A stretch of DNA of 64,000 nt from an uncultured bacterium (lineage in GTDB: Bacteria > Chloroflexota > UBA5177 > JANWHV01): NCBI GenBank assembly GCA_963827235.1, contig CAWHAE010000009.1, forward strand, positions 352,001 through 416,000, read 5' to 3'. The position numbers were made by a program, and so were the translations under genes. Below, in pieces: positions 9,078 through 48,310 of the stretch (positions are counted from its first letter, which is position 1; every line of letters starts with the position of its first letter). The notes under the pieces were generated by a model. It was not told where the DNA came from. It did no database searches and saw only the letters and a program-made list of their open reading frames with translations.

Positions 9078-9429
9078 CCTGCCCCTCCTCGATCGGACCT
9101 TGTCTACACGATCGCCCGCCGGGTGGAGAGCCGCGCTCTCCGCCGGTAAGCGGCGGCCACTGCTACCCCTATCCTAGGCTATGCTCGCGCGAGTGTGAAC
9201 CCTGCAGGACACGATGTCACTGCCAGTGTGCCACAAGATGGTTCCCTACGCTATCGCCCCCGTCCACCAGGGCGAGCCTGGATAGTGATCCTGCCTGTTG
9301 GCGAAATCCAAAGGGCCCCACACCCGGGACCGCGGACATCTCGTGCGCCCTCGTGAGCCAGGTGGACGGGTCGAGCCACGGTGCCGCCCAGCCACGGGAC
9401 CATAGCCTCGGGCAGTACGGACGCCCATC

Positions 9430-10911
9430 TCATGACGCCTTCAGACGCACCACGGCCACGGACCAGGGCGGTATGGAGATCCGCGATCCGCTAAGACGTG
9501 CATGCCGTACGGCGCCGGCGCCGTCCGCCCGGCTGGAGTCCGGCGCGATCCACCACATCTCGGCGGCACTGCCCGATCCCGCCTGCAGGTCGACGCTCTG
9601 CGCCTTCTTGCCGTCCAGGTTTACCAGCAGGAGGCGCCTCTCGCCCGTGTCCGTCGTGGCGCCCGCGGCAAGAACGCCGGCCTTCGTGGCCCCGCTGCCG
9701 AGTTGGACCGCCACGGGATGCGTGCCGAAGTAGCGCCCGAGCAGTGTGTAGACGTCGATTGCCGAGCGTGGCGCGGAGGTTGCTATGTCGAACGGCTCCT
9801 GCGCCGGGCCGAACATGGGCGCCTCGACGGCCATGGCGATCGGATTGTCGCCGCCGGCGTCATCCCACACACGGGCCAGCAGGGCGGCGGTGAACAGGGC
9901 CTGCGCGTATCCGCCGTAGACGCTCGGCTCGTTCAGCCCTGTATTCGCGTCGATAGACCAGCGCCCGATGAAGATCTTGATCGAGCTCGACTGGTCGAAT
10001 TGCTGCAGACCTTCACGCAGGCTCTCGAGCCAGGCGTCCACGCCGGGCCGGTCGCCATAGCCGTTCTCCACGGCCTGCACGATGTCCTGCACGCCCAGCG
10101 TGTGGCTTCCGGACGAGTAGATCAGCGGCGCGTAGTGCGTGTCGACGCCGCCGTGGGCCAGGGCATCGATCCAGCTCTCGTCGGTGGCGCCGGTAATGAA
10201 CTCGTCGGCCACGATCTTGATTGGATGCTGCCGGTAGTACGGCGCCGCCAGCACCATCGCCGCCTTGTACGACGTGACGAGCGCCGCATACTGGTCCGGA
10301 GTAGCCATGGAGGAGTCGCTCGGCTGGCGCTGTTTGAGCGGAATGGCAAAGTGCGACCAGGTCGCCGGAGAATCGCCGATCTCCCAATAAGGGTCCGGGC
10401 AATCCTGGTCCGGCGCGTGCGCGCAGTGCTGCCAGTAGAAGGCGACCAGCTGCGCGGCCTGCTGTGGATCGTCGATCTCGCCGTTCACCGCGATCAGCGG
10501 CTGCGCCCCGACCTGACCGGCAAAGGCCATGAACTGGTCCAGCGGGCTGCCGTGTCCGGCCCGGTTATAGCAGTCGGGCCGCGTCCCCGTGGAGCCGTAC
10601 ACGCAGCCCTGCTGCCAGTCGTAGTCGTCGGCATGCGTGTCGAGAAAACGGAGTACCTGGAGGCGCGCCGCGCGTATCGGCCCCGCCAGGGAATTGCTGG
10701 GAATGTCGCCCAGGCCGATGCCCAGTCCCAGGGCCATCGTGCCCGAGATGCCGGAGGTTAGCTCGAGCACCAGGGCACGGGCTGGAAGCGCGGGAGGCTG
10801 TGCCGGCTGTCCGGAAAACAGCGTCACGCCAAAGATCGAGGCCAGGAACAGGCCGGCCAGCGCGACCAGCGCCGCGGATACCGCGAAAGCAACAACCTGT
10901 TGCCGCCGCAT
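9430..10911 (-). CDS. Membrane-anchored/exported clan GH-A-like protein (GH44/51/79-like), probably non-catalytic
   Basis: DQFMAFAGQVGAQPLIAVN, YWEIGDSP (vs WEIGNEP), IFIGRWS (vs ITEW), C-terminal LLLVN beta-sandwich; N-terminal TM helix. Confidence 0.7.
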   Translation of the reverse strand: MRRQQVVAFAVSAALVALAGLFLASIFGVTLFSGQPAQPPALPARALVLELTSGISGTMALGLGIGLGDIPSNSLAGPIRAARLQVLRFLDTHADDYDWQQGCVYGSTGTRPDCYNRAGHGSPLDQFMAFAGQVGAQPLIAVNGEIDDPQQAAQLVAFYWQHCAHAPDQDCPDPYWEIGDSPATWSHFAIPLKQRQPSDSSMATPDQYAALVTSYKAAMVLAAPYYRQHPIKIVADEFITGATDESWIDALAHGGVDTHYAPLIYSSGSHTLGVQDIVQAVENGYGDRPGVDAWLESLREGLQQFDQSSSIKIFIGRWSIDANTGLNEPSVYGGYAQALFTAALLARVWDDAGGDNPIAMAVEAPMFGPAQEPFDIATSAPRSAIDVYTLLGRYFGTHPVAVQLGSGATKAGVLAAGATTDTGERRLLLVNLDGKKAQSVDLQAGSGSAAEMWWIAPDSSRADGAGAVRHARLSGSRISIPPWSVAVVRLKAS

Positions 10912-11726
10912 CAGCGCCCGGTTAGGTCGAGGGTGAGCGAGACCTGAGGCCCCGTGTAGCCGTCCAGGCTGAGCTGCGCCAGCACCGTCAGCGAGGTGTT
11001 CTGATCGCTGGCCTTCGGCTGGTAAACCACTGGAAGCTGGCAGCGATACATGCCGTTTGCATTGGTCAGCGAGGTCGAGGTCAGGTCATTGCGGTAGCAG
11101 CTTATCGACGTGCTGTCCGGATAGACCAGCTTCGCCGTGACCTGGGCGCCCGGATCGCTGCTGATCTGGATGACCAGCACGGCGCCGTTGCGGATAGAGC
11201 AGGCAGCCTGGTCATCCGGGCACCAGGTCGTCATGTAGCGCGGGCGGGCGCGCAGCACGGTAGAGGCAAGCGGTGCCGTTTCCGCGATGGTCACGCTCCC
11301 GCTCACCATGTCGGGGTGACCCTTGTTGAGCACGGTGACGGTGAGCTGCGCCTGCGCGTAGCTGGTCACCGGGTTGTAGTGAATGGGCAGATTGGCCCGC
11401 GCGATACCCCTGGCGTTTGCCGTCACGGTGAGCACTCCTGATGGCGGGGCGGTCGTACCATCCGGGAACCTGAGCTGCACCTGGACCGCGGCGTATTTAC
11501 GCGTGCCAATCACGAGGTGCAGCGTGTCGCCGGACTGGATGGTGGAGCTGCATACGAGCACGTCGGTGCTGTCGCTGCTGTAGTGCACCGCGTGATCCGA
11601 CGTAGCACACGCGGGAACGGGAACGGTGTCGAGCGCCAGGCGAGCATGCGTATTGGCAGGGGTCAGCCCGACGCTGGACCACAGGAGTATCACGGTGGAC
11701 ACGAGAGCGGCGATGCGACGGGCCAT
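10911..11726 (-). CDS. Hypothetical exported Cys-containing protein with two related beta domains
   Basis: Signal peptide; V.L.FPDGT / AKLVYPDST and LPIHYNP / LPVVYQP internal similarity; stop overlaps the next start (TGATG). Confidence 0.7.
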   Translation of the reverse strand: MARRIAALVSTVILLWSSVGLTPANTHARLALDTVPVPACATSDHAVHYSSDSTDVLVCSSTIQSGDTLHLVIGTRKYAAVQVQLRFPDGTTAPPSGVLTVTANARGIARANLPIHYNPVTSYAQAQLTVTVLNKGHPDMVSGSVTIAETAPLASTVLRARPRYMTTWCPDDQAACSIRNGAVLVIQISSDPGAQVTAKLVYPDSTSISCYRNDLTSTSLTNANGMYRCQLPVVYQPKASDQNTSLTVLAQLSLDGYTGPQVSLTLDLTGR

Positions 11727-35048: not shown

Positions 35049-35190
35049 TCACGGAGGCGTCCTGGGCGGCGGACTTGTCGGGACCAAGGAGGACGGCCAC
35101 CAGTTGCAGCGCCCCAGGAGCACCACCGCTCGGGGCACCAGCAGGGTGCGAACCAGGAAGGTGTCCACGAGCACGACCAGGCAGGCGTGC
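35049..35190 (-). pseudogene. C-terminal remnant of an MMPL-family transporter
   Basis: VLVDTFLVRTLLVP..VVLLGRCNWWP matches the MMPL terminal motif. Confidence 0.7.
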
Positions 35191-35769: not shown

Positions 35770-37326
35770 ATGCATTCTGTAGCGGACGATCGTGCGGTGC
35801 CATCAACACCCAGAAGCGAAGCCATGCGGCAACTCTATCGGCCGCAATTCCACTTCTCGCCGCCCAGGAATTGGATGAATGATCCCAATGGCCTGGTGTA
35901 TTACGAAGGCGACTACCACCTGTTCTATCAGCATAATCCTGATGCCATGGTGCACGGCACGGAACGGCCAATGCACTGGGGCCATGCCATCAGCACCGAT
36001 CTGGTGCGGTGGACCGATCTTCCGATCGCCTTATCGCCGGATCACCTGGGCGACATCTGGTCCGGATGTGCGGTGGTGGATCATGAAGACAGTGCAGGTT
36101 TGTTCGCCGGTCAGGCTGGGCTCGTTGCCGTTTTCACGCAGAGCCTGGATAGCCTGCAGCAGCAGAGCATCGCCTACAGTAGCGACAAGGGCCGGACCTG
36201 GACGATGTTCCCGGGAAATCCCGTGCTGTCCAATCCTGGTTTGCCCGACATGCGCGATCCCAAAGTGTTCTGGCATGCGCCTGCGAAGCGATGGGTCATG
36301 GTCCTTGCCTGCGGTGACCACGTCCGGCTCTATACGTCGCCGGATCTGATCGGCTGGACGCATGTCAGCTCCTTCGGCCAAGGGCATGGATCCCACGCCG
36401 GTGTCTGGGAGTGTCCGGATCTGTTCTCCTTGCCGGTTGACGGCGATCCAAACGACCGAAGATGGCTGTTGTCCGTCAGCGTGGGAAATGCTCAGTTTAG
36501 CCGTGTCCAGTACTTCGTCGGTCGATTCACCGGTGACGAGTTCATCAATGACGACGCGGCCGGCGTGATCAGGTGGGCCGACTGCGGCGCGGACAACTAC
36601 GCCGCTGTCACGTGGTCGGACACATCTCTTGCGGATGGACGCCGAGTGTGGATTGGCTGGATGGCCTCGCCGTCGTATGCCGAGCGGGTTCCTACGAGTC
36701 CCTGGAGAGGCTGCTTGACACTGCCCCGCTTCCTCGATCTGCATGCAACCGGGCACGGTCTGCGGCTGGCACAGACCCCTGTCCCCGCATTGCGCCAGTT
36801 GCGCGGAGAGGGCCGTCACTGGGCGCACACAACGGTCGTGCCCGGGACAAACCTTCTTTCGGGCACTACAGGGCGAGCACTTGAGTTCGCAGGGCAGTTC
36901 GCGCCGCCGGTGTCGACGGAGTTTGGCTTTCGGGTACATACGAACGGCGAACACTACACAACCGTTGGATACGACTCGAGAACCTCGACGTTGTTCATCG
37001 ATCGAACCGCTTCTGGACTCACGTCCTTTAGCCCGCGCTTCTCAGGCCGTCATGAGGTCCAGCTCCCCTTGCGAAACGGTGCCCTCGAGCTCCAGATCTT
37101 CATCGACTGGTCGTCGATCGAAGTCTTTGGCAACGGCGGTGAGGCCGTGATCACCGATCTCATCTTCCCCGATATCGACGCACTCGGCCTGGAACTCTAC
37201 GCTTGCGGCGGCGAGGTCGCGATCGAGTCCCTGGATATCTACCCCGTTATGTCGATCTGGGAGCCTGGCTCGCCGGTCTTGACCGTGCCCGACACCTGTT
37301 TGGCTGCAGATCCAACCGACCAGTAA
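35770..37326 (+). CDS. GH32 beta-fructosidase (levanase/exo-inulinase-like), no signal peptide
   Basis: WMNDPNG, HWGHA, WSG, RDPKVFW, WECPDLF, DWSSIEVF. Confidence 0.94.
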   Translation: MHSVADDRAVPSTPRSEAMRQLYRPQFHFSPPRNWMNDPNGLVYYEGDYHLFYQHNPDAMVHGTERPMHWGHAISTDLVRWTDLPIALSPDHLGDIWSGCAVVDHEDSAGLFAGQAGLVAVFTQSLDSLQQQSIAYSSDKGRTWTMFPGNPVLSNPGLPDMRDPKVFWHAPAKRWVMVLACGDHVRLYTSPDLIGWTHVSSFGQGHGSHAGVWECPDLFSLPVDGDPNDRRWLLSVSVGNAQFSRVQYFVGRFTGDEFINDDAAGVIRWADCGADNYAAVTWSDTSLADGRRVWIGWMASPSYAERVPTSPWRGCLTLPRFLDLHATGHGLRLAQTPVPALRQLRGEGRHWAHTTVVPGTNLLSGTTGRALEFAGQFAPPVSTEFGFRVHTNGEHYTTVGYDSRTSTLFIDRTASGLTSFSPRFSGRHEVQLPLRNGALELQIFIDWSSIEVFGNGGEAVITDLIFPDIDALGLELYACGGEVAIESLDIYPVMSIWEPGSPVLTVPDTCLAADPTDQ

Positions 37327-37456
37327 TGGTTGTAAGCAGTGATCGAAACAGAGGGACAAGTGTCGCAGCCAGCCGCTCGAGGTCCGGATAGACGAAAGCA
37401 ACTACAATTCGTTCGCGACGATCACTACGCATCGGACGACCACCCCATGTCCGCGT

Positions 37457-37996
37457 CGCACCTCGCTCGGCCCCATGTCCGCGTTCGCGATCAGGCCTGT
37501 CCCGGCAAAGCGCGCCTGCTGCCGCTCCCGCGCCGCCTGCACCGCATGGGACGGCTCGCCCTGGCTCTCGCCCGTCAGCTTCTCGTACTGCACTCGCGGC
37601 ACTTCCACGTGGATGTCGATGCGGTCCATCAGCGGCCCCGACAGCCGGTGCTGGTACTTCGCTATCGCCCCCGGCGAGCACGTGCACTCCCGCACGCTGT
37701 CCCCGGCATAGCCGCACGGGCACGGGTTCATCGCCCCTACCAGCATGAACTTGGCTGGAAAGGTCACCGAGCCATTCACCCGGCTGATCGTCACCGTGCC
37801 GTCCTCCAGCGGCTGCCGCAGCACTTCCAGCCCCGCCTGGCCGAACTCCGGCAGCTCGTCCAGGAACAGCACCCCCCGGTGCGCCAGCGAGATCTCGCCC
37901 GGGCGCGGCCAGCGCCCGCTTCACATGCTCCTGGCCGCGCACCGCGGAGAAGTCCACCGCCGGGCTGGGCTGGACGTCCAGGTCCAGAGCCAGGGG
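37457..37996 (-). repeat. Partial yifB/comM copy A (matches 44335-~45130, with two deletions)
   Basis: Near-identical to the intact gene; 12-nt deletion at a GCACC repeat and 245-nt deletion at an 11-nt repeat CCAGCGCCCGC that removes Walker A. Confidence 0.95.
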
Positions 37997-38021
37997 CGTG
38001 GCTACCGCCGTGTCACGCCGC

Positions 38022-38501
38022 CTACTGACCCTGCACGACGAGCGTGTAGCAGCCCTGGTTGTGCAGGGTACAGCTGCCGGCACGCAGCTGCACGCTGTAC
38101 ACCGCCGGCTCATTCCAGTCCACAGGAGCCGGGCCGGTGCCGCGCGTCAGCAGGCTGCCCACGACCGGCACCCGGCGCAAGATGTTCCAGGTCGAGTCGC
38201 CCGCCTGCACTTCCAGGGGAAACTGGACGCCCGCATTCTGGGTCGCATCGTCGAGAAGGAGCGCCTGCAGATAGCACAGGGTCACGCTCGGCGCACAGGG
38301 ATAGAGCTCGACGGCCGTGCCGCGGACCAGCAGCGTACGGCCAACCCAGGCAGCCGGGTTTCGCGCCAGCCCGGCAGAGATCTGCGCCACGCTGTACACC
38401 GGCGCGGCGGCAAGCGGCCGCGCCGGCAATGGCCGGGGGCGGAGCCACCAGGTCGCCAGCCCGGCGCCGAGCAGGAGCACCAGAGCATATCTCATCCTCA
38501 T
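38022..38501 (-). CDS. Hypothetical membrane-anchored protein
   Basis: N-terminal TM helix YALVLLLGAGLATWW, P..WVGRTLLVRG, two Cys pairs. Confidence 0.65.
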   Translation of the reverse strand: MRMRYALVLLLGAGLATWWLRPRPLPARPLAAAPVYSVAQISAGLARNPAAWVGRTLLVRGTAVELYPCAPSVTLCYLQALLLDDATQNAGVQFPLEVQAGDSTWNILRRVPVVGSLLTRGTGPAPVDWNEPAVYSVQLRAGSCTLHNQGCYTLVVQGQ

Positions 38502-39035
38502 CAGACTGACCCTGCCAGCCCGGTCCTTCAATCCTCCGCGCTTGCGGACGGCGCATCCTGTGCTGGCGGCTGACCGCGCAGCCAAGGTCTCGCAGCCCGG
38601 ACATACTGGTCCGCCGCCCCAGACCCTGCGCGTGCCGAGCGATCGGCACAGCCGGCGGAACGGGCGCGCTGCCCGTGGCGGCTCTGCAGGCAAGACCAGC
38701 GTGCCGGATTACCAATGCGCTTCCCCTACCGGTGTACCACCACGCGACATTGTGCGACGCTCTCAAGGACCGGCAAGCGGCTGGGTCTCCTGTCGCCTTC
38801 AGCTTCCAATTGCATTGCTCGAACTGTGGGCAGAGGCGCTGCGCCGCGTTGATAGCGGATATCCTAGCGTTGATGGTGGAGTCGAGGAATGACACCATTG
38901 CAGAGACCTTGACCAAGGCCGAAGAGTGGAAAAGCCCGAGAGACCCTGCGGGTCTCGTCACCGTCGTGGAGGCATCGATGTCAGGGTGCACCGCTGGCAC
39001 ATCTTGGGACAGAGCAACGCGGCAAGGAGTAGCCG

Positions 39036-39923
39036 ATGGCGATGAACGTAACTAAGGCGGTGATCACGGCGGCCGGGCCCGGTCAGCGCACCCTGCCGGT
39101 CCAGATGCTCATTGACCGCGATGGCGTCGAAAAGCCTCTGCTCCAAATCTTCGTCGAGGAAATCGTGAGCGCCGGGATCGAGGAAATCGGGGTGGTCGTG
39201 GCCCCCGGAGATGAAACGTCGTACCAGGAGGCAATCGGCGACCGGGATGGCTTGGGCCACGGTTACCGCGGCGCCAACGTGACGTTCATCTGCCAGGAAC
39301 GTCCTTTAGGGTATGGTCACGCCGTCTACTGCGCCCGCGACTTTGTCGGCGGCGAGCCCTTCCTGCACCTTGTCGGCGATCACCTCTACGTCTCCGGGAG
39401 CGAGAAGTCGTGTGCCCGTCAGCTGGTCGAAACAGCCAGCGCCCAGGAATGCGCCGTCTCGACCGTGCAGGCCACGCGGGAGAGTCTGCTCCCCTACTTC
39501 GGCGCCATCGGGGGCCGCCGCATCCAGGGACGCCGCGAGCTCTACCTGGTTGAGACGGTTATTGAGAAGCCGGCGCCAACCGAGGCGGAACTCAGGCTTG
39601 CCGTCCCCGGCCTGCGGGCTGGGCACTACCTCTGCTTCTTCGGCATGCACGTGCTCACACCCACGATCATGGAGATCCTGAGCGATCAGCTGGCAGAGGC
39701 CACGGCCGCGACCACGCTCTCCGCGGCATTGGCCAGGCTCGCCGAGCGAGAGAGATACCTGGCTCTCGAGGAGCACGCTTGGCGGTACGACGTCGGCGCC
39801 AGGTACGGCATCTTCAACGCGCAGCTTGCCCTGGCGCTCAGTGGGAAGGACCGCGCCGAGGTGCTCTCGTTGCTCCTCGAGCTGGTGGCGCAGCGGGACC
39901 TCGGCGCAACGCAGAGGTCATGA
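39036..39923 (+). CDS. GalU-like sugar-phosphate nucleotidyltransferase
   Basis: [32 protein letters not shown]. Confidence 0.88.
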
Positions 39924-42900
39924 TGAGCGGGCAACTCGTCGAGATCCTCACATCTACCGACCCGGCAGTTCGCAACCGATCACTCGATGCGTGCTGCAGA
40001 ACGGCGTCGCTGGCCGAGCTTCAGCGCGAATGCGCGGACCTGGAGGCCCTGCGGCACACCAGTGCCAATCTCTACGAGCGCGTGCGCGCACTGTTCTTCC
40101 TGTACGCCATCCACCGCTTCCACGTGCCGGCCAAGCTCACTGGGCCAGCTTCTGGGCTGATTCCCTATGAGGGCTATGCTCGCCTGCTGCAGCGGCGCTT
40201 CGAAGAAGCGATAACGGAGTTCCTCGGCGCCGGACGAAGCTCTGGCAATAGCGCAGCGATTTCCAGCGCCCTGGCCGAAGCCTACCGCCGCCTCGGTTTG
40301 CAGACGCTGGCCGATCAAGTGCGCCGAAGCGTCCGCTCGGTGCGCGGCAATCAATGGATGTTCCGCGTCGGCCATCCCATGGACCAGCCACTTCGCGTGC
40401 GCCACGAACTGGTGGAGCGGTCGCCAGATGGCCTGTTCCCGATCCTCCATGAGGCAACGCCGGTCCGCATGGACCTGAACCACTGTGCCTGGAGCGACAT
40501 CTTCTTTCTCGGGATGGATTATCCCGAGGGCGCCCGCGTGCTGAACGTCTCGATAGACCTCGCGGTCCGTGGGCGCGAGCCTTCCCCGCGCCCACCCGTG
40601 GAGGCATACTTCCGCGTCATCGACGAGCCTGTCCTCCGCCTGGCGAGCGTGGATCTCGGCGCCACGGCAGAGATAAAGAGCCTCGCCGAGGTGTTCGACT
40701 ACGCCGCCGACTACCTCGGCCTCCTCAAGGCCGCGGTCATCGCGTCTGGTCTCGTTCCTCCTGGGATCGAAGGCTCCGGCGAGCGCCTCGAGGACCTGCT
40801 GGCTCGTGTTGCCGGCGAAGGCAAGGGTATCGAGCTCGTCAGCCGTGTCAATGGCATCCCAAAGGGCTCGCGCCTCGCGGTGTCGACCAACCTGCTTGCC
40901 AGCCTGATCGCGGTGTGCATGCGAGCAACCGGCCAGACCGCCTCGATGGTTGGCGAACTCGCCGAAAGCGAGCGGCGCATCGTGGCGGCACGCGCCATTC
41001 TGGGCGAGTGGTTGGCGGGCTCGGGCGGGGGATGGCAGGACTCGGGCGGGGTCTGGCCCGACATGAAGCTGATCACCGGCGTTCTGGCCTCACCGGACGA
41101 CCCAGAGTACGGCATCAGCCGCGGCTGTCTCTTGCCGGTGCACCACATCCTCACCGCGGACGAGGCGTCGGACGACACCCGCAGCCGCCTCCAGGACAGC
41201 CTGGTGCTCGTCCACGGCGGCATGGCGCAGAACGTCGGACCGATGCTCGAGATGGTAACCGAGAAGTACTTGCTGCGCTCCGAGGCCGAGTGGGCCGCGC
41301 GGCAGGAGGCCGGCGCCATCCTGGACGAGATCCTTGGCCTCCTTCGCACGGGCGACACCCACGCCATCGGCGCCGCAACCACGCGCTGCTTCCTCGGGCC
41401 CATTCGCACGATTGTCCCACGTGCGACAAACCTCTTCACCGAGTCGCTGATCGATCAGGTGCGAGCTGAGTTTGGCGAAGCGTTCTGGGGCTTCTGGATG
41501 CTCGGAGGAGCCTCCGGAGGTGGGATGGGCTTCATCTTCACGCCGGAGCGGCGAGATGCCGCGAAGGACCGCCTCCAGGAGATCATGCTGCAGACGAAGC
41601 GGCGCCTCGAGCACGCGCTGCCCTTTGCCATCGATCCGGTGGTCTACGACTTCGCCATCAACACGCGGGGGACGGTTGCCGACTTGCGCTCGGGCGGCTC
41701 GGCCCTGATGCCGTCCGGCTACTACCCGCTGACCATTCCCGGACTCCTCCGGCAGGACCCGCTCAGTCTTGCGCAGGGACGCCGCGTCGAGTTAAGCCGC
41801 GTCGGCATGGTCTGCCGCACCCAGCCTGAGTTCTCCGGCATGGTGCAACGGATCTTCGACCGGGTCATGCCTGAGCCAGGGCATGAAGATGGCAACGGCC
41901 AGAGCCTGCACGACCTGCTCGCCGCACTCGGCTTCGACCGCATCCAGCACGAGCAAATCCGGGCGGACCTGCGGAGCGGCCGTATTGGCCTGGCCCAAAA
42001 CCGGCTACCGGCGCGGACCGTCATCCGCGACGCCGAACCGGGCGACGTGGCCAGCCTCGTGGCGCTGCCGGAACTCCGGACCTTGCAGGAGCGCGGCCGG
42101 CAGCTGGTGGGCGAGGGTGCCGCCGCGGTGGTCACGTTCGCCGCTGGCGTCGGCAGCCGCTGGACCGAGGGAGCAGGTGTGGTCAAGGCGCTCAACCCCT
42201 TCGGCAGGCTCGCCGGCAAGCACCGTACGTTTCTCGAGATCCACCTCGCGAAGAGCCGGCGCCTCGGCCGGGAGTGCGGGGTGGCCTTGCCACACGTCGT
42301 CACTACCAGCTTTCTGACCGATCAGCCGATCCGGGATTTCCTCGAATCCCACGACCGCTACGGCTACGGCGGACCACTGGTACTCTCGCCCGGGCGGAAT
42401 GTCGGGTTGCGTCTGGTGCCGATGACGCGCGACCTGCGCTTCGCCTGGGAGGAGATGCCCCAGCAGCTGCTCGATGAGCAGGCGCAGAAGGTGCGGAAGA
42501 GCCAGCGTGCGGCGCTCATCGGCTGGGCCTTGCAGTTGGGTGAGGGCAGCGACTACACGGACAATGTGCCACTCCAATGTCTCCACCCAGTTGGCCATTG
42601 GTTCGAGTTCGCCAACATGCTCAGGAATGGTGTCCTGGCGCAGCTCATCGCGGAGCGCCCCACGCTGCAGGTGCTGATGGTGCACAACATCGACACGGTG
42701 GGCACGGACGTCGATCCGGCGCTCCTTGCGTGGCATCTCGAGACGGAGGTGGCCATGACCGTGGAAGTGATCCGGCGGTACGTCGAGGACCGAGGCGGTG
42801 GCCTGGCCCGCGCCGATGGACGCTTGCGGCTGGTTGAGGGCCTGGCCATGCCGCGTGAGCAGGACGAGTTCAATCTCACGTTCTATAACACGGGCACGAT

Positions 42901-43243
42901 GTGGCTACATGTCGACCGCGTTCTGGCGGTCTTTGGGCTGACGAGGGCCGACCTCGGCGACGAGGAGCGCGTCGCGGCAGCGGTACGGGCAGTGGCGACG
43001 CGCATGCCGACGTACGTCACGCTGAAAGACGTCAAGAAACGTTGGGGACAGGGCCAGGAGGATATCCTGCCGGTGGCACAGTTCGAGAAGCTCTGGGGCG
43101 ACATGACTGCTCTGCCCGAGCTGGAGTGTCGCTATGTTGAGGTGCCGCGGCCACGCGGGCAGCAGCTCAAAGACGTCGCCCAGCTCGATGGCTGGCTCCG
43201 CGATGGCTCCAGCGACTACGTCGCCTCGATCTGCGCCTTCTAG
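39920..43243 (+). CDS. Bifunctional GHMP-type sugar kinase / UDP-sugar pyrophosphorylase-like protein (~1107 aa)
   Basis: [31 protein letters not shown] (GHMP/fucokinase-like), then [22 protein letters not shown] (UDPGP-like); ATGA overlap with the upstream gene. Confidence 0.85.
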
Positions 43244-43417
43244 CGAGGAGCCGTATGCAAACCACACGTCGCGTGGCAGAAGCCCTTCTCCGGTGGGGAA
43301 ACGGTCGGCGTTGTCCAGGGCTGCGTTGCCGCGTTTCCTCAATGGGCGGAGTGTACACCATGGCATAGATACCTCGAATACTGCGGTAGACGGGCATCGA
43401 ACGACTGGATAGGCTCC

Positions 43418-43576
43418 TCAGGAAGTCAATTCGTCGATGAAGGTAGCCGGCGACGCCTGGAAGTACTCCGCCAGCTTCTGCACGTGCGTCATGGCCAGTC
43501 GACGCTTGTTATGCAGAATCTCGGACACGAGTGATCGTCGCCCCAGTACCGGCACGAGATCGGCCTGTCGGAGGCC
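43418..43576 (-). pseudogene. C-terminal HTH half of a HigA-type antitoxin
   Basis: Manual translation [46 protein letters not shown]; its 5' end abuts yifB copy B. Confidence 0.78.
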
Positions 43577-43824
43577 CGGACAGCCGGTGCTGGTACTTCG
43601 CTATCGCCCCCGGCGAGCACGTGCACTCCCGCACGCTGTCCCCGGCATAGCCGCACGGGCACGGGTTCATCGCCCCCACCAGCATGAACTTGGCCGGAAA
43701 GGTCACCGAGCCGTTCACCCGGCTGATCGTCACCGTGCCGTCCTCCAGCGGCTGCCGCAGCACTTCCAGCCCCGCCTGGCTGAACTCCGGCAGCTCGTCC
43801 AGAAACAGCACGCCCCGGCGCGCC
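43573..43824 (-). repeat. Partial yifB/comM copy B (matches 44524-44775)
   Basis: 252-nt near-identical copy encoding [23 protein letters not shown], with about 7 substitutions. Confidence 0.95.
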
Positions 43825-44036
43825 GCCAATCCCTGTTCCGGATCCCAACCCAGGTGCAGTGCCTTGGACTCAAGATAACGATCGATGAGAGACAGGAGCG
43901 CGCTCTCCAGGACGCCATGCATTCCCTTAGGTGGCGGTATTTCCCGTATCGCTCCCCGCACATATTCATGCAGGTTCCCGTTGTCGGGTAACGCCAGGAA
44001 CTCTTCGAAGCTGTGGTGTCTTCGCTCTGCGACCAT
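43825..44036 (-). pseudogene. Uma2-family N-terminal fragment fused in frame to yifB copy B
   Basis: [38 protein letters not shown], a typical Uma2 N-terminus. Confidence 0.78.
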
Positions 44037-44141
44037 GCCTATCCCTCGCGCTACAAGCACAGTGTCCGCGTCCCGTATCACCTTGGACCTGTACAGAAGC
44101 GCGCAAATGTGCTGGACTGGAACAGGCAACGAGTGGGATAA

Positions 44142-45659
44142 CTACACTTGCTTCCGCGCCCGATACTGCAGCGCCTCGGCGGCGTGAATGGCAGCGATCG
44201 TCTCCGCACCCGCCAGGTCCGCGATCGTCCGCGCCAGCTTCAGCGTGCGGTGGTAGGCTCGGGCACTCAGGTGCAGCTGCTGCATGGCCGATTTCAGCAG
44301 CCCCTGCGCGCTTGCCTCCGTCAGGCAGTACTTGCGCACCTCGCTCGGCCCCATGTCCGCGTTCGCGATCAGGCCTGTCCCGGCAAAGCGCACCTGCTGC
44401 CGTTCCCGCGCCGCCTGCACCCGCGCCCGCACCGCATGGGACGGCTCGCCCTGGCTCTCGCCCGTCAGCTTCTCGTACTGCACTCGCGGCACTTCCACGT
44501 GGATGTCGATGCGGTCCACCAGCGGCCCCGACAGCCGGTGCTGGTACTTCGCTATCGCCCCCGGCGAGCACGTGCACTCCCGCACGCTGTCCCCGGCATA
44601 GCCGCACGGGCACGGGTTCATCGCCCCCACCAGCATGAACTTGGCTGGAAAGGTCACCGAGCCATTCACCCGGCTGATCGTCACCGTGCCGTCCTCCAGC
44701 GGCTGCCGCAGCACTTCCAGCCCCGCCTGGCCGAACTCCGGCAGCTCGTCCAGGAACAGCACCCCCCGGTGCGCCAGCGAGATCTCGCCCGGGCGCGGCC
44801 AGCGCCCGCCGCCCACCAACCCCGCGTTGCTGATCGTGTAGTGCGGCGCCCGGAACGGTCGCTCACGCACCATCGGCTGGTCCGGCGAGAGCATACCAGC
44901 CACCGAGAAGATCTTCGTCGCTTCCAGACTCTCCTCCGGCGTCATGCGCGGCAGGATCCCGGGCAGCGCGCGGGCAAGTAGCGTCTTGCCCGCGCCCGGC
45001 GATCCACTCATCAGCACGTTGTGCCCGCCGGCCGCAGCGACCTCCAGCGCCCGCTTCACGTGCTCCTGCCCGCGCACCGCGGAGAAGTCCACCGCCGACG
45101 TCGGTTCCACGTCCAGGTCCAGCCCCATCGGCTGCGCGGGTGCGATCGGCCTGTCACCGCGCAGATGCCCGACCAGCGCCGCCAGGTTCTCCCCCGGGAT
45201 GATCGTCATGCCTTCGACCAGCGCCGCCTCCGCAGCGTCGACCGCCGGCACGAACACCGTGCTGATCCCATGGTCCCGCGCCAGGGCCACCATGGGCAGG
45301 ATGCCGTTGGTGTGCCGCAGGGCCCCATCCAGCCCCAGCTCCCCCAGGAACAGGCACCCCGTGTCGTCGAATACGATCTGCTCACCCGCGCGCAGCACGC
45401 CCACTGCCATCGGCAGGTCGTACGATGGGCCTTCCTTGCGAATGTCTGCCGGCGCCAGGTTGACTGTGATGCGCTTGAGGGGGAAGCTGAGCCCGGAGTT
45501 GCGGATGGCGGCGCGCACGCGCTCCTTGGCCTCGTTGACCGCCGCGTCGGGCAGTCCCACGATGGTGAAGGCGGGCAGCCCGTTGGCCAGGTCTACTTCC
45601 ACCTGCACGAGGGCGCCGTCTAGGCCGACCACCGCGCATGACTGCACCATCGCCAGCAT
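44142..45659 (-). CDS. comM: YifB/ComM family Mg-chelatase-like AAA+ ATPase
   Basis: [65 protein letters not shown]. Confidence 0.95.
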   Translation of the reverse strand: MLAMVQSCAVVGLDGALVQVEVDLANGLPAFTIVGLPDAAVNEAKERVRAAIRNSGLSFPLKRITVNLAPADIRKEGPSYDLPMAVGVLRAGEQIVFDDTGCLFLGELGLDGALRHTNGILPMVALARDHGISTVFVPAVDAAEAALVEGMTIIPGENLAALVGHLRGDRPIAPAQPMGLDLDVEPTSAVDFSAVRGQEHVKRALEVAAAGGHNVLMSGSPGAGKTLLARALPGILPRMTPEESLEATKIFSVAGMLSPDQPMVRERPFRAPHYTISNAGLVGGGRWPRPGEISLAHRGVLFLDELPEFGQAGLEVLRQPLEDGTVTISRVNGSVTFPAKFMLVGAMNPCPCGYAGDSVRECTCSPGAIAKYQHRLSGPLVDRIDIHVEVPRVQYEKLTGESQGEPSHAVRARVQAARERQQVRFAGTGLIANADMGPSEVRKYCLTEASAQGLLKSAMQQLHLSARAYHRTLKLARTIADLAGAETIAAIHAAEALQYRARKQV

Positions 45660-45881: not shown

Positions 45882-48053
45882 TCAGAGGGCCTCGATCAGC
45901 AGCAGCTCCGAGGTAAGCGGGCTTTCCAGGCGAATCTCCAGTCCGTCGCGGCGCAGGTCCAGGCCCGTGAGCTCGACGCACTCGCCGGTATTGTCCAGCT
46001 GCACCCGGTAAGCCCGGCCATCGCGCAGGCCGCGTGGTCGATAGCAGTAGCGACCTGGATCGGGCTCGGTCAAGCGGAAGATCCCGGCCACTTCGCTCGA
46101 GCCGTCGGGTGAGGCGTATTCCAGCACGCACCACGGCCGCGGCCGGTCCAAGGGTAGCACGGGCGTGTGGTGATAGACCCTGGCGTCGGGCAGGATCGGG
46201 CGAATGAACTCCTTATAGAGACGTACGGCGTGTGCGATCGTGGCGCGGCGTGGCTCGCCGAGCTGGTCCGGAGACGGCGCGATCCCGCGGAAGATCGGAT
46301 GGGCGAACAGGCAGGAGCGCAGCAGGTAGTCGAGGTCGCCGTACAGGTAATTGTCCGGAAACTCGGTGCCGAAGGTGCGCAGGCAGATCTCCGGCGGCAG
46401 GTGCAGGCTCAGGCCGTTCAGGATCTTGAGCGAACGCGGGGCAGGCATCCAGTCCGAGATCTCGGTGATCTGGAAGTAGCGCAGCATGCCGAGATCCAGC
46501 CGGCCCCCGCCTGAAGCGCAGTTCTCGAAGATCACTCCGGGGAAACGCCGGCGAAGGCGCTCGAATATGCCCCAGATCGCTTCCACGTGACGCCAGATCG
46601 TGTTCTCGAGGAAGCCGTCTCGCAGCCGGTTGCCGCCCTCGTAGACGTGGGTATTGTAGTCCAGGCGAAACACGTCGAGCCCGTATTGCGCGATGATCCG
46701 CACGAGCTCGGCTTCCATCCAGCCGGCGACCGCGGGATTCGCCACGTCTAGGTGCCTTCCTTTCCCCACCGGCTCGCCGTTGCGGGTCAGCACCCAGTCC
46801 GGATGTTCCTTGAGCAGCATGGAACTGGCGCCGATGCTCTCGATTTCGACCCATAGACCGAACAGCAAGCCTTTATCGTGGGCATGCCGGACCAGAGGAT
46901 GGAGATCGTTCGGCAGCCATGCCCCGGCGTACCAATCGCCGACGTTGTCGGCCCAGCGGTTTGGCTCTGGTCCGTACCAGCCGGCATCGATCATGAAGAT
47001 CTCGGCGCCGATCTCGGCGGCCATGTCGATCTCGCGCATGATCCCACCCTCGTCTTCGTGGTCCGAAAGGTAGCCGCGATGGTTGGCTTCGATCAGCTGC
47101 GACTTGCCCGGCAATTGTGCCGGCAGTACGGCGGAACGAATGTGGTCGTGCAGCGCCTGGACACAGCCGTCCAGGTCCGCATGCAAATGCCCTATGTGTA
47201 CCGCCGGGACGCTGACCGTCTCGCCGGCTTCGATCACGCGCAGGGTGGGGTCCGCGGCGAACGGCCCTATCTTGACGAAGAGCCTGGCATAGCGCGCCCG
47301 ATCGTCCTGTTCGACGGTGATCTCGTACCGCCAGTTGCCGCTCCAGGCCAGCTCTCCGATGAAGGTCTCGCCGGTGACCTCGTTTCTGAGCATGAACGAC
47401 GGCCGGCCGTGTCCGGAACGGCCCATCCTGCCCTCGACGACCTTCGTGCCGGCGCGCAACGGCTCCCAGCGGAAGTCGCCCTCTCTGAGAGGGCTCGAAT
47501 CGACGAAGTAGCCCAGGCTGAACACCGATCCCGAGCCGCCCTCGGGCAGGTTCTCGGCGAAATCGCGAATCCACCAGAGCAAGCCGGCAAACGGGGCAAC
47601 GGCCGACAGCGAGACCGGTCGCGCCCCGGTATTGGTCACGCTCAGCCAGCGCTCGAGAAACGGGCTGCCGTCGAAGCGCGTGTGCACTGTCACGCCGGCG
47701 TCGCTCGACTGATGCGCGAGCTCGATCGCCAGGTGGCGCGATCCGGGACGATCTTCGGCGATCTCCCGGCTGGCAACCCATTGCCAGGCGCTCTCGAGCA
47801 GCAGGTTGCCGATGCGCAGATGGAATGCCTCGGTAGGCAGGATGTCGACGATCTCCCGTTCCTGCTCGATGGCCTGCCAGGGCCTGATCGTCCCGTTCGC
47901 CGACCAATATCTGCCGATGAATCGGCCGCTGCTCAGCTCTTCGTCATAGATGGTGAGACCGGATCTGTAGCAGACGCCTGGCGAAGGTGCGGAGCGCAGC
48001 TCAATCGCCGTGTCGGCCTCTTCATTGAGGCGGTTGATAGGCAACCGTGGCAT
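45882..48053 (-). CDS. GH36 alpha-galactosidase-like protein
   Basis: FMIDAGW, GDW, FGLWVE.E, LDYN, ENCASGGGRLDLG, ISD. Confidence 0.9.
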   Translation of the reverse strand: MPRLPINRLNEEADTAIELRSAPSPGVCYRSGLTIYDEELSSGRFIGRYWSANGTIRPWQAIEQEREIVDILPTEAFHLRIGNLLLESAWQWVASREIAEDRPGSRHLAIELAHQSSDAGVTVHTRFDGSPFLERWLSVTNTGARPVSLSAVAPFAGLLWWIRDFAENLPEGGSGSVFSLGYFVDSSPLREGDFRWEPLRAGTKVVEGRMGRSGHGRPSFMLRNEVTGETFIGELAWSGNWRYEITVEQDDRARYARLFVKIGPFAADPTLRVIEAGETVSVPAVHIGHLHADLDGCVQALHDHIRSAVLPAQLPGKSQLIEANHRGYLSDHEDEGGIMREIDMAAEIGAEIFMIDAGWYGPEPNRWADNVGDWYAGAWLPNDLHPLVRHAHDKGLLFGLWVEIESIGASSMLLKEHPDWVLTRNGEPVGKGRHLDVANPAVAGWMEAELVRIIAQYGLDVFRLDYNTHVYEGGNRLRDGFLENTIWRHVEAIWGIFERLRRRFPGVIFENCASGGGRLDLGMLRYFQITEISDWMPAPRSLKILNGLSLHLPPEICLRTFGTEFPDNYLYGDLDYLLRSCLFAHPIFRGIAPSPDQLGEPRRATIAHAVRLYKEFIRPILPDARVYHHTPVLPLDRPRPWCVLEYASPDGSSEVAGIFRLTEPDPGRYCYRPRGLRDGRAYRVQLDNTGECVELTGLDLRRDGLEIRLESPLTSELLLIEAL

Positions 48054-48310
48054 AATCGTGTCTCCTTCATTCGTGAGCCGCGGTCCAGCGGAGGCGTGTG
48101 CTTCTCTCAGGCACATATCGGGTCGCTTCGCCGCGCGAGGCAGCATGCAGTGCCATGTGTGTTATACCGCTCGCCACCCCGATTGGCCGGCACCAGCGCT
48201 GCCGGATTTGCCGCGTGCCTTACTCATGAATTGGCCGGCCTACGCCGTCCGCGGCCGGGCGATGCGGGCAGCGACAACCGCGGTCGATCTCGCCATGGAG
48301 CGCGTGCGCA

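Follow-up and report, generated by a model that had tools for sequence, protein, structure and literature searches.

An intact comM gene followed by two partial copies

In a Chloroflexota genome of 7.98 Mb (G000; 21 contigs, 65% G+C, estimated contamination 9%), the gene comM, also known as yifB, is accompanied by two partial copies, interspersed with unrelated genes. The array lies on a 1.3-Mb contig, within C9:352001-416000; this 64-kb stretch is referred to as the window. The intact gene (44142..45659, minus strand) encodes a protein of 505 amino acids (aa) with a ChlI N-domain (Pfam E-value 2e-46), an AAA+ Mg_chelatase core containing the Walker A, Walker B, and NPCPCG motifs (1e-92) and, after it, a Mg_chelatase_C domain (3e-31). 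It scores 575 bits against NCBIfam TIGR00368 (YifB), for which the cut-off is 362 bits, and by these family criteria is a YifB/ComM AAA+ ATPase. Family membership suggests that the protein may serve as a helicase in natural transformation, the role given to ComM in PMC11472951.

Searching the window and the whole genome with blastn places comM sequence at three sites, all on the minus strand: the intact gene, which is the sole full-length copy, and the partial copies B and A. The original prediction of an intact yifB with two co-oriented partial copies is thereby borne out. Copy B (43573..43824, minus strand) corresponds to nucleotides (nt) 885-1136 of the gene, or aa 296-379, and runs from Walker B to just beyond the NPCPCG motif. 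It is identical to the intact gene at 245 of 252 nt, and five of the seven mismatches fall at third codon positions.

Copy A (37457-37997, minus strand) is likewise a partial copy, as predicted, but not the single colinear piece it was taken for. Its 3′ segment (37457..37919) equals gene nt 851-1325 with four mismatches and one 12-nt gap, a deletion flanked by 5-nt repeats. Its 5′ segment, at 37909..37987 (37997), equals gene nt 538 (528)-616, the linker ahead of the AAA+ domain, and represents a divergent allele with nine mismatches in 79 nt, six of them at third positions; the variant linker reported earlier for copy A is thus confirmed. The segments meet at the 11-nt direct repeat GCGGGCGCTGG, found at gene nt 606-616 and again at 851-861. 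Because the join lies at this twice-occurring repeat, 245 nt have been lost and the two halves of copy A stand in different frames. At the 3′ end of copy A, a 14-nt direct repeat occurs twice, 28 nt apart (37443-37456 and 37471-37484, minus strand), a signature of slippage or template switching. Position 37443, which had been proposed as the boundary of the array, actually belongs to the second copy of this repeat.

Both partial copies lack aa 1-175 and lie downstream of the intact gene in the same orientation. Copy A overlaps copy B in its coverage of the gene, and therefore at least three gene copies were involved. Read along the minus strand, the order is comM, a Uma2 5′ fragment fused to copy B, a helix-turn-helix (HTH) fragment, a sugar-nucleotide block in the opposite orientation, a small protein, and copy A.

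The largest piece of cargo is the oppositely oriented block at 38816..43243 (plus strand), which comprises a promoter region and the sugar-nucleotide gene pair already recognized in the original prediction. The first gene (39036..39923) encodes a GalU-like nucleotidyltransferase with an NTP_transferase domain, and the second (39923..43243) a protein of about 1106-1154 aa in which a GHMP-kinase/fucokinase-like region precedes a C-terminal UDPGP domain (Pfam, NCBIfam). The kinase-like region matches NCBIfam NF009948 with an E-value of 2e-18, far under the cut-off. The two genes may constitute a sugar-1-kinase/pyrophosphorylase salvage pair. The operon (38816-43242) is 90.2% identical over 4427 nt to a locus on contig C10 of a relative from the same genus (G001:C10), with homology stopping at the stop codon, and this second locus contains no comM pieces. 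It is found in only two of the 31 relatives searched, and the protein of about 1106 aa is 91% identical between G000 and G001. An ancestral empty site is not definable for the operon, as the genes that flank the G001:C10 copy are scattered in G000.

The remaining cargo consists of fragments and one small gene. The Uma2-family 5′ fragment (43825..44036, minus strand) extends for about 70 codons and is fused in frame with copy B inside an open reading frame (ORF) at 43509-44129. The family assignment made earlier is weakly supported, by a Pfam match (PF05685, E-value 3.2e-5, profile positions 1-53 of 172) that lies under the gathering score. The fragment has no nucleotide paralogue elsewhere in the G000 genome, and its best homologue in a congener, at 57% identity, is located at an unrelated locus. 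The C-terminal fragment of an Xre-type HTH protein (43418..43570, minus strand) had been labelled higA, a name that could not be confirmed: it matches Pfam HTH_3 with an E-value of 0.0098 over profile positions 23-53 of 55, and nothing in NCBIfam. The small gene (38022..38693, minus strand; G+C of 0.82 at third codon positions) encodes a lineage-specific protein with a hydrophobic N-terminal stretch; translation probably starts near 38501, and about 25 nt separate the stop codon from the beginning of copy A. It has no Pfam or NCBIfam match, and weak homologues only (39-42% identity) in two congeners.

Allele-like divergence and recurrence in relatives

The differences between the partial copies and the intact gene are not distributed as expected of decaying duplicates. 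Third codon positions hold 13 of the 20 differences, a bias with P = 0.004 against one third and P = 0.048 against 44%, the estimated third-position expectation for one constrained and one free copy. Copy A also diverges unevenly, with 9/79 differences (11.4%) in its 5′ segment versus 4/452 (0.9%) in its 3′ segment (Fisher P = 1e-5). In the 252-nt core common to all three copies, copy A differs from the intact gene at one site, and copy B from either of the others at seven to eight. Because of the third-position bias and the uneven divergence, the copies read as alleles and not as a decaying local duplication; judged by sequence comparison they are allele-like, in agreement with what had been proposed from the window.

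As internal segments of comM, the stubs differ from the gene by 0.9-2.8%, mostly at synonymous sites, and share no sequence outside comM. The 5′ segment of copy A is nearer to the G000 gene (9 differences) than to the G001 gene (18). The G000 and G001 comM genes themselves diverge by 14.5% at the nucleotide level, fairly evenly (12-17% over five segments), a uniformity that is uninformative about mosaic breakpoints in the intact gene. A variation cassette system resembling pilS was considered and rejected, since the differences are synonymous.

A comM protein query found a match in 30 of the 31 relatives, and extra pieces of the gene recur among them. In G001, the intact gene is accompanied by at least eight partial pieces on two contigs, with 80-95% identity to its own gene. 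Here, 101 of 142 differences are at third positions (P = 6e-11 even against the 44% expectation), as are 29 of the 35 in the stub of another relative, G013 (L017). The G001 stubs group with the G001 gene and not with that of G000 or of another congener, G003 (11-22 differences in 195 nt, versus 36-43 to G000). Five of the eight G001 pieces share one end, at gene nt 640-653, immediately before the Walker A codons. Past this breakpoint two stubs have about 45 nt in common and then diverge; as a degenerate pattern of 27 nt, the shared sequence matches only at those two places in the 31 genomes searched. Since the junction runs straight into a stop codon, explanations by an intein or by a homing element at Walker A were discarded. 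The cargo of G001 includes URO-D-like genes, ABC transporters, a fucosidase, ParE, and DUF5615, and none of 30 ORFs neighbouring the pieces encodes a recombinase.

Simpler arrays are found elsewhere. In G013, comM is followed by an MNT-HepT module and then by a stub equal to gene nt 1183-1516. Extra pieces near an intact comM also occur in L040, L043, L051, L111, L119, and L172, and L115 contains two in series; the stub of L043 (OZ252229.1, titled ‘chromosome: 1’) has an internal deletion resembling that of copy A. As a rough frequency, a second comM match is present in four of 80 genome loci, and a second or truncated match is flagged in eight of 80 metagenome loci. In G013 and L115, the stub remains similar to the gene only as far as the stop codon, and the intact gene continues without a break across the point at which the stub starts, the structure expected if an incoming unit supplied a replacement 3′ end and so restored the ORF on insertion. 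The cargo between the repeats in these other arrays is small and often consists of toxin-antitoxin or abortive infection (Abi) modules. The MNT-HepT modules of G013 and a further genome, G007, were rejected as one cassette, with only 29-35 of 100-115 residues identical.

Comparison of comM neighbourhoods, one of the checks attached to the original prediction, reveals no conserved downstream neighbourhood among the relatives, and stubs are present in them too. Flanking synteny around comM is absent among G000, G001, and G003, and searches of public genome and metagenome contig collections yielded no match above 69% identity.

Three further loci show comM in unusual states. At the end of a G001 contig (L015, G001:C7), two comM pieces at 9395-9596 and 11087-11158 have a common junction different from that described above; each is followed by an ORF that by eye resembles a ribbon-helix-helix antitoxin, giving a tandem stub-plus-gene unit, and the contig ends just after. 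G007, a genome that is 94% complete, has only the 3′ third of comM (aa 360-503; L019, G007:C15, 10129-10560), with a gene for an Ig-like-domain protein before it and MNT-HepT-HepT after it; the same query found no 5′ part in G007. In G003, a contig ends within comM at aa 421 (L016, G003:C185, 12775-14037), as might result if repeats at this gene had broken the assembly there too.

Serine recombinases at comM and the proposed origin of the array

Large serine recombinases (LSRs) are found directly at comM junctions outside G000. In G006, a genome of the same class, comM covers aa 1-217 and immediately adjoins the gene of a 621-aa protein that has Resolvase, Recombinase, and Zn_ribbon_recom domains and weakly matches the NCBIfam models for CcrB and XisF. 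The junction of this element with comM is at the position where two G001 stubs break (the gene nt 640-653 class). Among IMG/VR viral contigs, 15 loci contain a partial comM with the junction inside the locus, and 26 of their 60 candidate ORFs were scanned by Pfam. In 11 of the 15, the comM junction is 3-96 nt away from the end of a serine recombinase ORF (770 nt in L207), and ten of these 11 ORFs have both Resolvase and Recombinase domains. The viral junctions fall into classes near aa 213-215, 271, 297-305, 326-335, 347, and 384, and L195 and L198 again have a junction just before Walker A. In two loci, L212 and L213, LSR genes lie on both sides of an internal comM piece of 114 nt; such a piece is what two insertions at separate sites of one gene would leave, and copy B has the same form. 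The ends of copy B (aa 296 and 379) lie within 3-5 codons of two of the viral junction classes.

Published work likewise places mobile elements at this gene family. Durrant et al. (2022; PMC10083194) assign 12.4% of predicted site-specific LSRs to the ‘magnesium chelatase/ATP-dependent protease’ family as their target, and report an enrichment of competence genes in the LSR target set. Phage WO sr1WO has the Mg chelatase gene as its integration site (PMC9203015), and comM of Acinetobacter baumannii is interrupted by Tn7-like AbaR and other elements that carry defence systems (PMC11472951). Blunt searches of a limited literature collection did not find comM stubs that restore the ORF, or Chloroflexota arrays of this kind, described in print, a result that carries no claim of their absence from it.

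Four matches to LSR domains are present elsewhere in the G000 genome. One, at C9:431093-431915, is a broken LSR gene, whose Resolvase-like and Recombinase matches lie in an open frame that spans just 156 aa. Two others, at C9:989152-989508 and C12:1391317-1391673, are Recombinase-domain matches with equal scores, each in an 803-aa open frame; the pair may reflect duplication of an element, or else a repeat at which the assembly breaks.

Together, these observations favour, with a probability of roughly 0.6, a reading of the region as an accretion array, now decayed and without a recombinase, that was left behind by integrative elements which targeted comM and carried replacement comM ends. Such elements would insert within comM, with LSRs of the kind seen in relatives and viral contigs, and some would bring a comM stretch of their own that rebuilds the reading frame. 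Each event would leave the intact gene at the 5′ end, followed by cargo and then by a displaced, co-oriented, 5′-truncated copy. At least two rounds would have occurred in G000, each shifting the older 3′ portion further downstream. Recombinase genes and most of the element backbones would have been lost afterwards, and deletions at short repeats would have trimmed the stubs and their neighbours, as suggested by the two deletions in copy A (245 nt and 12 nt), the 14-nt repeat at its 3′ end, and the truncation of the Uma2 and HTH genes. The long 3′ segment of copy A may have been homogenized by gene conversion against the intact gene, with the isolated 79-nt segment keeping its old divergence. 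Serial replacement of the 3′ end fits the arrangement, because the intact gene is 5′-most and both stubs are co-oriented downstream of it without aa 1-175. The co-oriented target-gene repeats bound cargo that is absent from relatives or located elsewhere in them, as expected of an array of LSR elements. These features, the allele-like divergence, the recurrence among relatives, the common junction of G001 and G006, and the recombinases next to comM elsewhere are observed directly, and from them we infer this origin and order of events for G000.

Several observations weigh against this origin. No LSR lies in or beside the G000 array, in contrast to G006 and the 11 viral loci: as the original prediction had noted for integrases, none of the 52 window ORFs scanned (10 + 42) encodes a Resolvase, Recombinase, Phage_integrase, or transposase domain. 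The nearest remnant in the genome, the broken gene on C9, is about 34 kb upstream of comM and about 15 kb past the end of the window. The boundaries of the cargo in G000 share no att-like motif, only short repeats at chance level. The match of copy B to the viral junction classes is approximate, since by a rough estimate about 5% of random placements would put two of four ends as close, and the outer ends of copy A (aa 176 and 442) match no viral class. The viral contigs have 31-50% G+C and hence come from unrelated hosts, and their comM parts may be phage-borne or host flank. Neither G000 stub reaches the stop codon, so that several later deletions must be assumed. Three 5′ pieces in G001 lie downstream of its intact gene, which is unexpected for a simple series. 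In nine arrays from other genomes, no integrase was found between the intact gene and the stubs, although the ±10-kb flanks sampled would miss large elements. As neither G000 stub reaches the stop codon, copy A overlaps copy B, and the G001 5′ pieces misfit a series, the exact history of the G000 array is not reconstructable.

The alternative that survives best, although it is unlikely, is in essence the idea of the original prediction and dispenses with a recombinase. Part of comM with adjacent cargo from a relative would enter by RecA-mediated recombination, either through a Campbell-type single crossover of a circle or through a double crossover during transformation with the comM repeats as arms, and would yield an intact gene, cargo, and a truncated copy with no integrase needed. 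The lack of an integrase among the window ORFs and between the repeats of the nine other arrays agrees with this, as does the small, heterogeneous cargo, often toxin-antitoxin or Abi modules. Repeats of 100-700 nt suffice for homologous recombination, the left boundaries of 3′ stubs vary among loci, and the grouping of stubs with the clade of the resident gene is expected from closely related donors. However, an end fixed at nt 640-653 in five of the eight G001 pieces and in the LSR element of G006 is hard to obtain by homologous recombination alone, and LSRs abut comM junctions in 11 of the 15 viral loci. Sampling of ±10 kb favours small, decayed inserts, and a Campbell product should retain the 3′ end, which is missing from both G000 stubs. 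Transformation would further require the lineage to be naturally competent. Nor do the fixed ends in G001, the G006 element, the viral loci, and the 12.4% share of LSR targeting point to an integron-like array built without a site-specific recombinase, as proposed in the original prediction.

A little more doubtful still is the idea that comM stubs act as portable homology arms, with units of the form ‘comM piece + cargo (+ comM piece)’ moving as recombinase-independent cassettes. If so, such units could enter any resident comM among related Chloroflexota by RecA-dependent recombination or transformation, rebuild the gene, and stack into arrays, and toxin-antitoxin, defence, and metabolic cargo would use the gene of a recombination helicase as a landing pad. 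A recombinase-free route of either kind would add a homology-only way to build cargo arrays, and the finding would then weigh more.

Dispersed local duplication of internal comM segments (for instance by templated repair or by switching of template), with neutral decay afterwards, is improbable. It would account for the junctions at short repeats (11 nt at the 245-nt deletion, 5 nt at the 12-nt deletion, and 14 nt at the 3′ end of copy A) and for the 99% identity of the copy A 3′ segment to the intact gene. It is contradicted by the third-position bias (13/20) and by the uneven divergence of copy A (11.4% vs 0.9%), and it leaves the distance of copy B from both other copies (7-8 of 252 nt, against one between copy A and the intact gene) and the lack of common flanking sequence unaccounted for. 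Moreover, synonymous-biased divergence of 5-10% recurs in many independent genomes.

Stitching of comM strain variants into one contig, an artefact for which the 21-contig assembly, its estimated 9% contamination, and one public run without a contig bridging the junctions under a 31-nt rule (X1, 7% of sampled words, as contigs) might be cited, can be given very little credence, because the array lies on a contig of 1.3 Mb, its copies are kept apart by unique junction sequence and by single-copy cargo of 4.4 kb, the copies are rearranged internally, unlike parallel haplotypes, independent assemblies such as L043 and G001 have this architecture too, and an exact 151-nt contig of X1, which may be the source sample, covers 43799-43949, with only 26 nt (<31) on the copy B side. 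The single joint listed for X1, 37902 to 45018 (side 23), is comM cross-mapping.

Known target-gene arrays and the genomic setting

Integrons resemble the comM locus in having an array of cargo units beside a fixed anchor. They are defined by the tyrosine recombinase IntI with attI/Pc next to it, and no Phage_integrase-family match is present among the window ORFs. Their cassettes are bounded by attC sites, whereas here comM pieces bound the units and inverted repeats are at chance level only (no attC-specific model was run). The cargo also differs, in that it includes an oppositely oriented operon of two genes that has an upstream region of its own.

In polymorphic-toxin loci (Rhs/CDI), orphan cassettes consist of alternative toxin tips and immunity genes placed after a homology stub. 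The original prediction drew on this analogy, and a full-length gene followed by co-oriented partial copies with a common homology stub is indeed common to both. The comM stubs, however, have no alternative C-terminal module or immunity gene, and unrelated gene fragments follow them. Since their differences are mostly synonymous and there is no alternative module, there is nothing to swap in, and the analogy fails.

Closer parallels are found among islands that accumulate at a target gene. In staphylococci, SCC and pseudo-SCC composite islands grow at rlmH by tandem accretion through serine recombinases. The likeness lies in serial islands bounded by co-oriented target repeats, and the G006 recombinase weakly matches the CcrB model. 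In Dehalococcoides, which belongs to the same phylum, tandem islands lie downstream of ssrA with 20-bp target repeats as bounds (PMC3146451); these are likewise serial islands with co-oriented target repeats, and the serine-recombinase module is kept in 16 of 31. The other 15 have no integration module of their own, like the recombinase-less array here. The ssrA repeats are about 20 bp of the gene end, whereas the comM repeats are 250-540 nt of internal coding sequence, rearranged, with no recombinase in the array.

LSR prophages and elements in comM (PMC10083194, PMC9203015) have the same target gene, with partial target pieces flanking the insert. A Walker A-proximal junction matches those of G006, G001, L195, and L198, and an Xre-type HTH gene is near one junction. 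The published descriptions are of a disrupted gene accompanied by the recombinase, whereas the G000 array has an intact comM and no remaining recombinase; their att repeats are short, whereas the comM stubs are long and allele-like.

The original interpretation is partly correct, in that the copies are alleles and no recombinase was found in the window, but the array is best grouped with the accretion arrays already known at target genes, its own target being the one that LSRs use most commonly, and not as a new integron-like system. It documents this most frequent LSR target gene after what would be repeated hits, in a little-studied Chloroflexota lineage with large genomes: the gene intact, allele-like stubs alongside, and recombinase-less cargo stranded between them. 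Stubs of comM are usable as markers of island boundaries in metagenome-assembled genomes, and annotators are cautioned against calling such pieces pseudogene ‘duplications’.

Genes for glycosidases flank the array on both sides. Upstream of comM lies a GH36 alpha-galactosidase-like gene (45882..48146, minus strand), and the far side of the array is flanked by a GH32 glycosidase gene (35770..37326, plus strand), both assigned by Pfam. Their homologues in congeners, at no more than 42% and 51% identity, respectively, are at other loci. A tRNA scan of the whole 64-kb window found no tRNA genes, and no Rfam families were detected at 30-50 kb of the window. Upstream of the GH32 gene, an 84-nt intergenic stretch (35092-35175) without an Rfam family match is repeated at C9:200241-200324 (85%) and C16:720389-720472 (78%).

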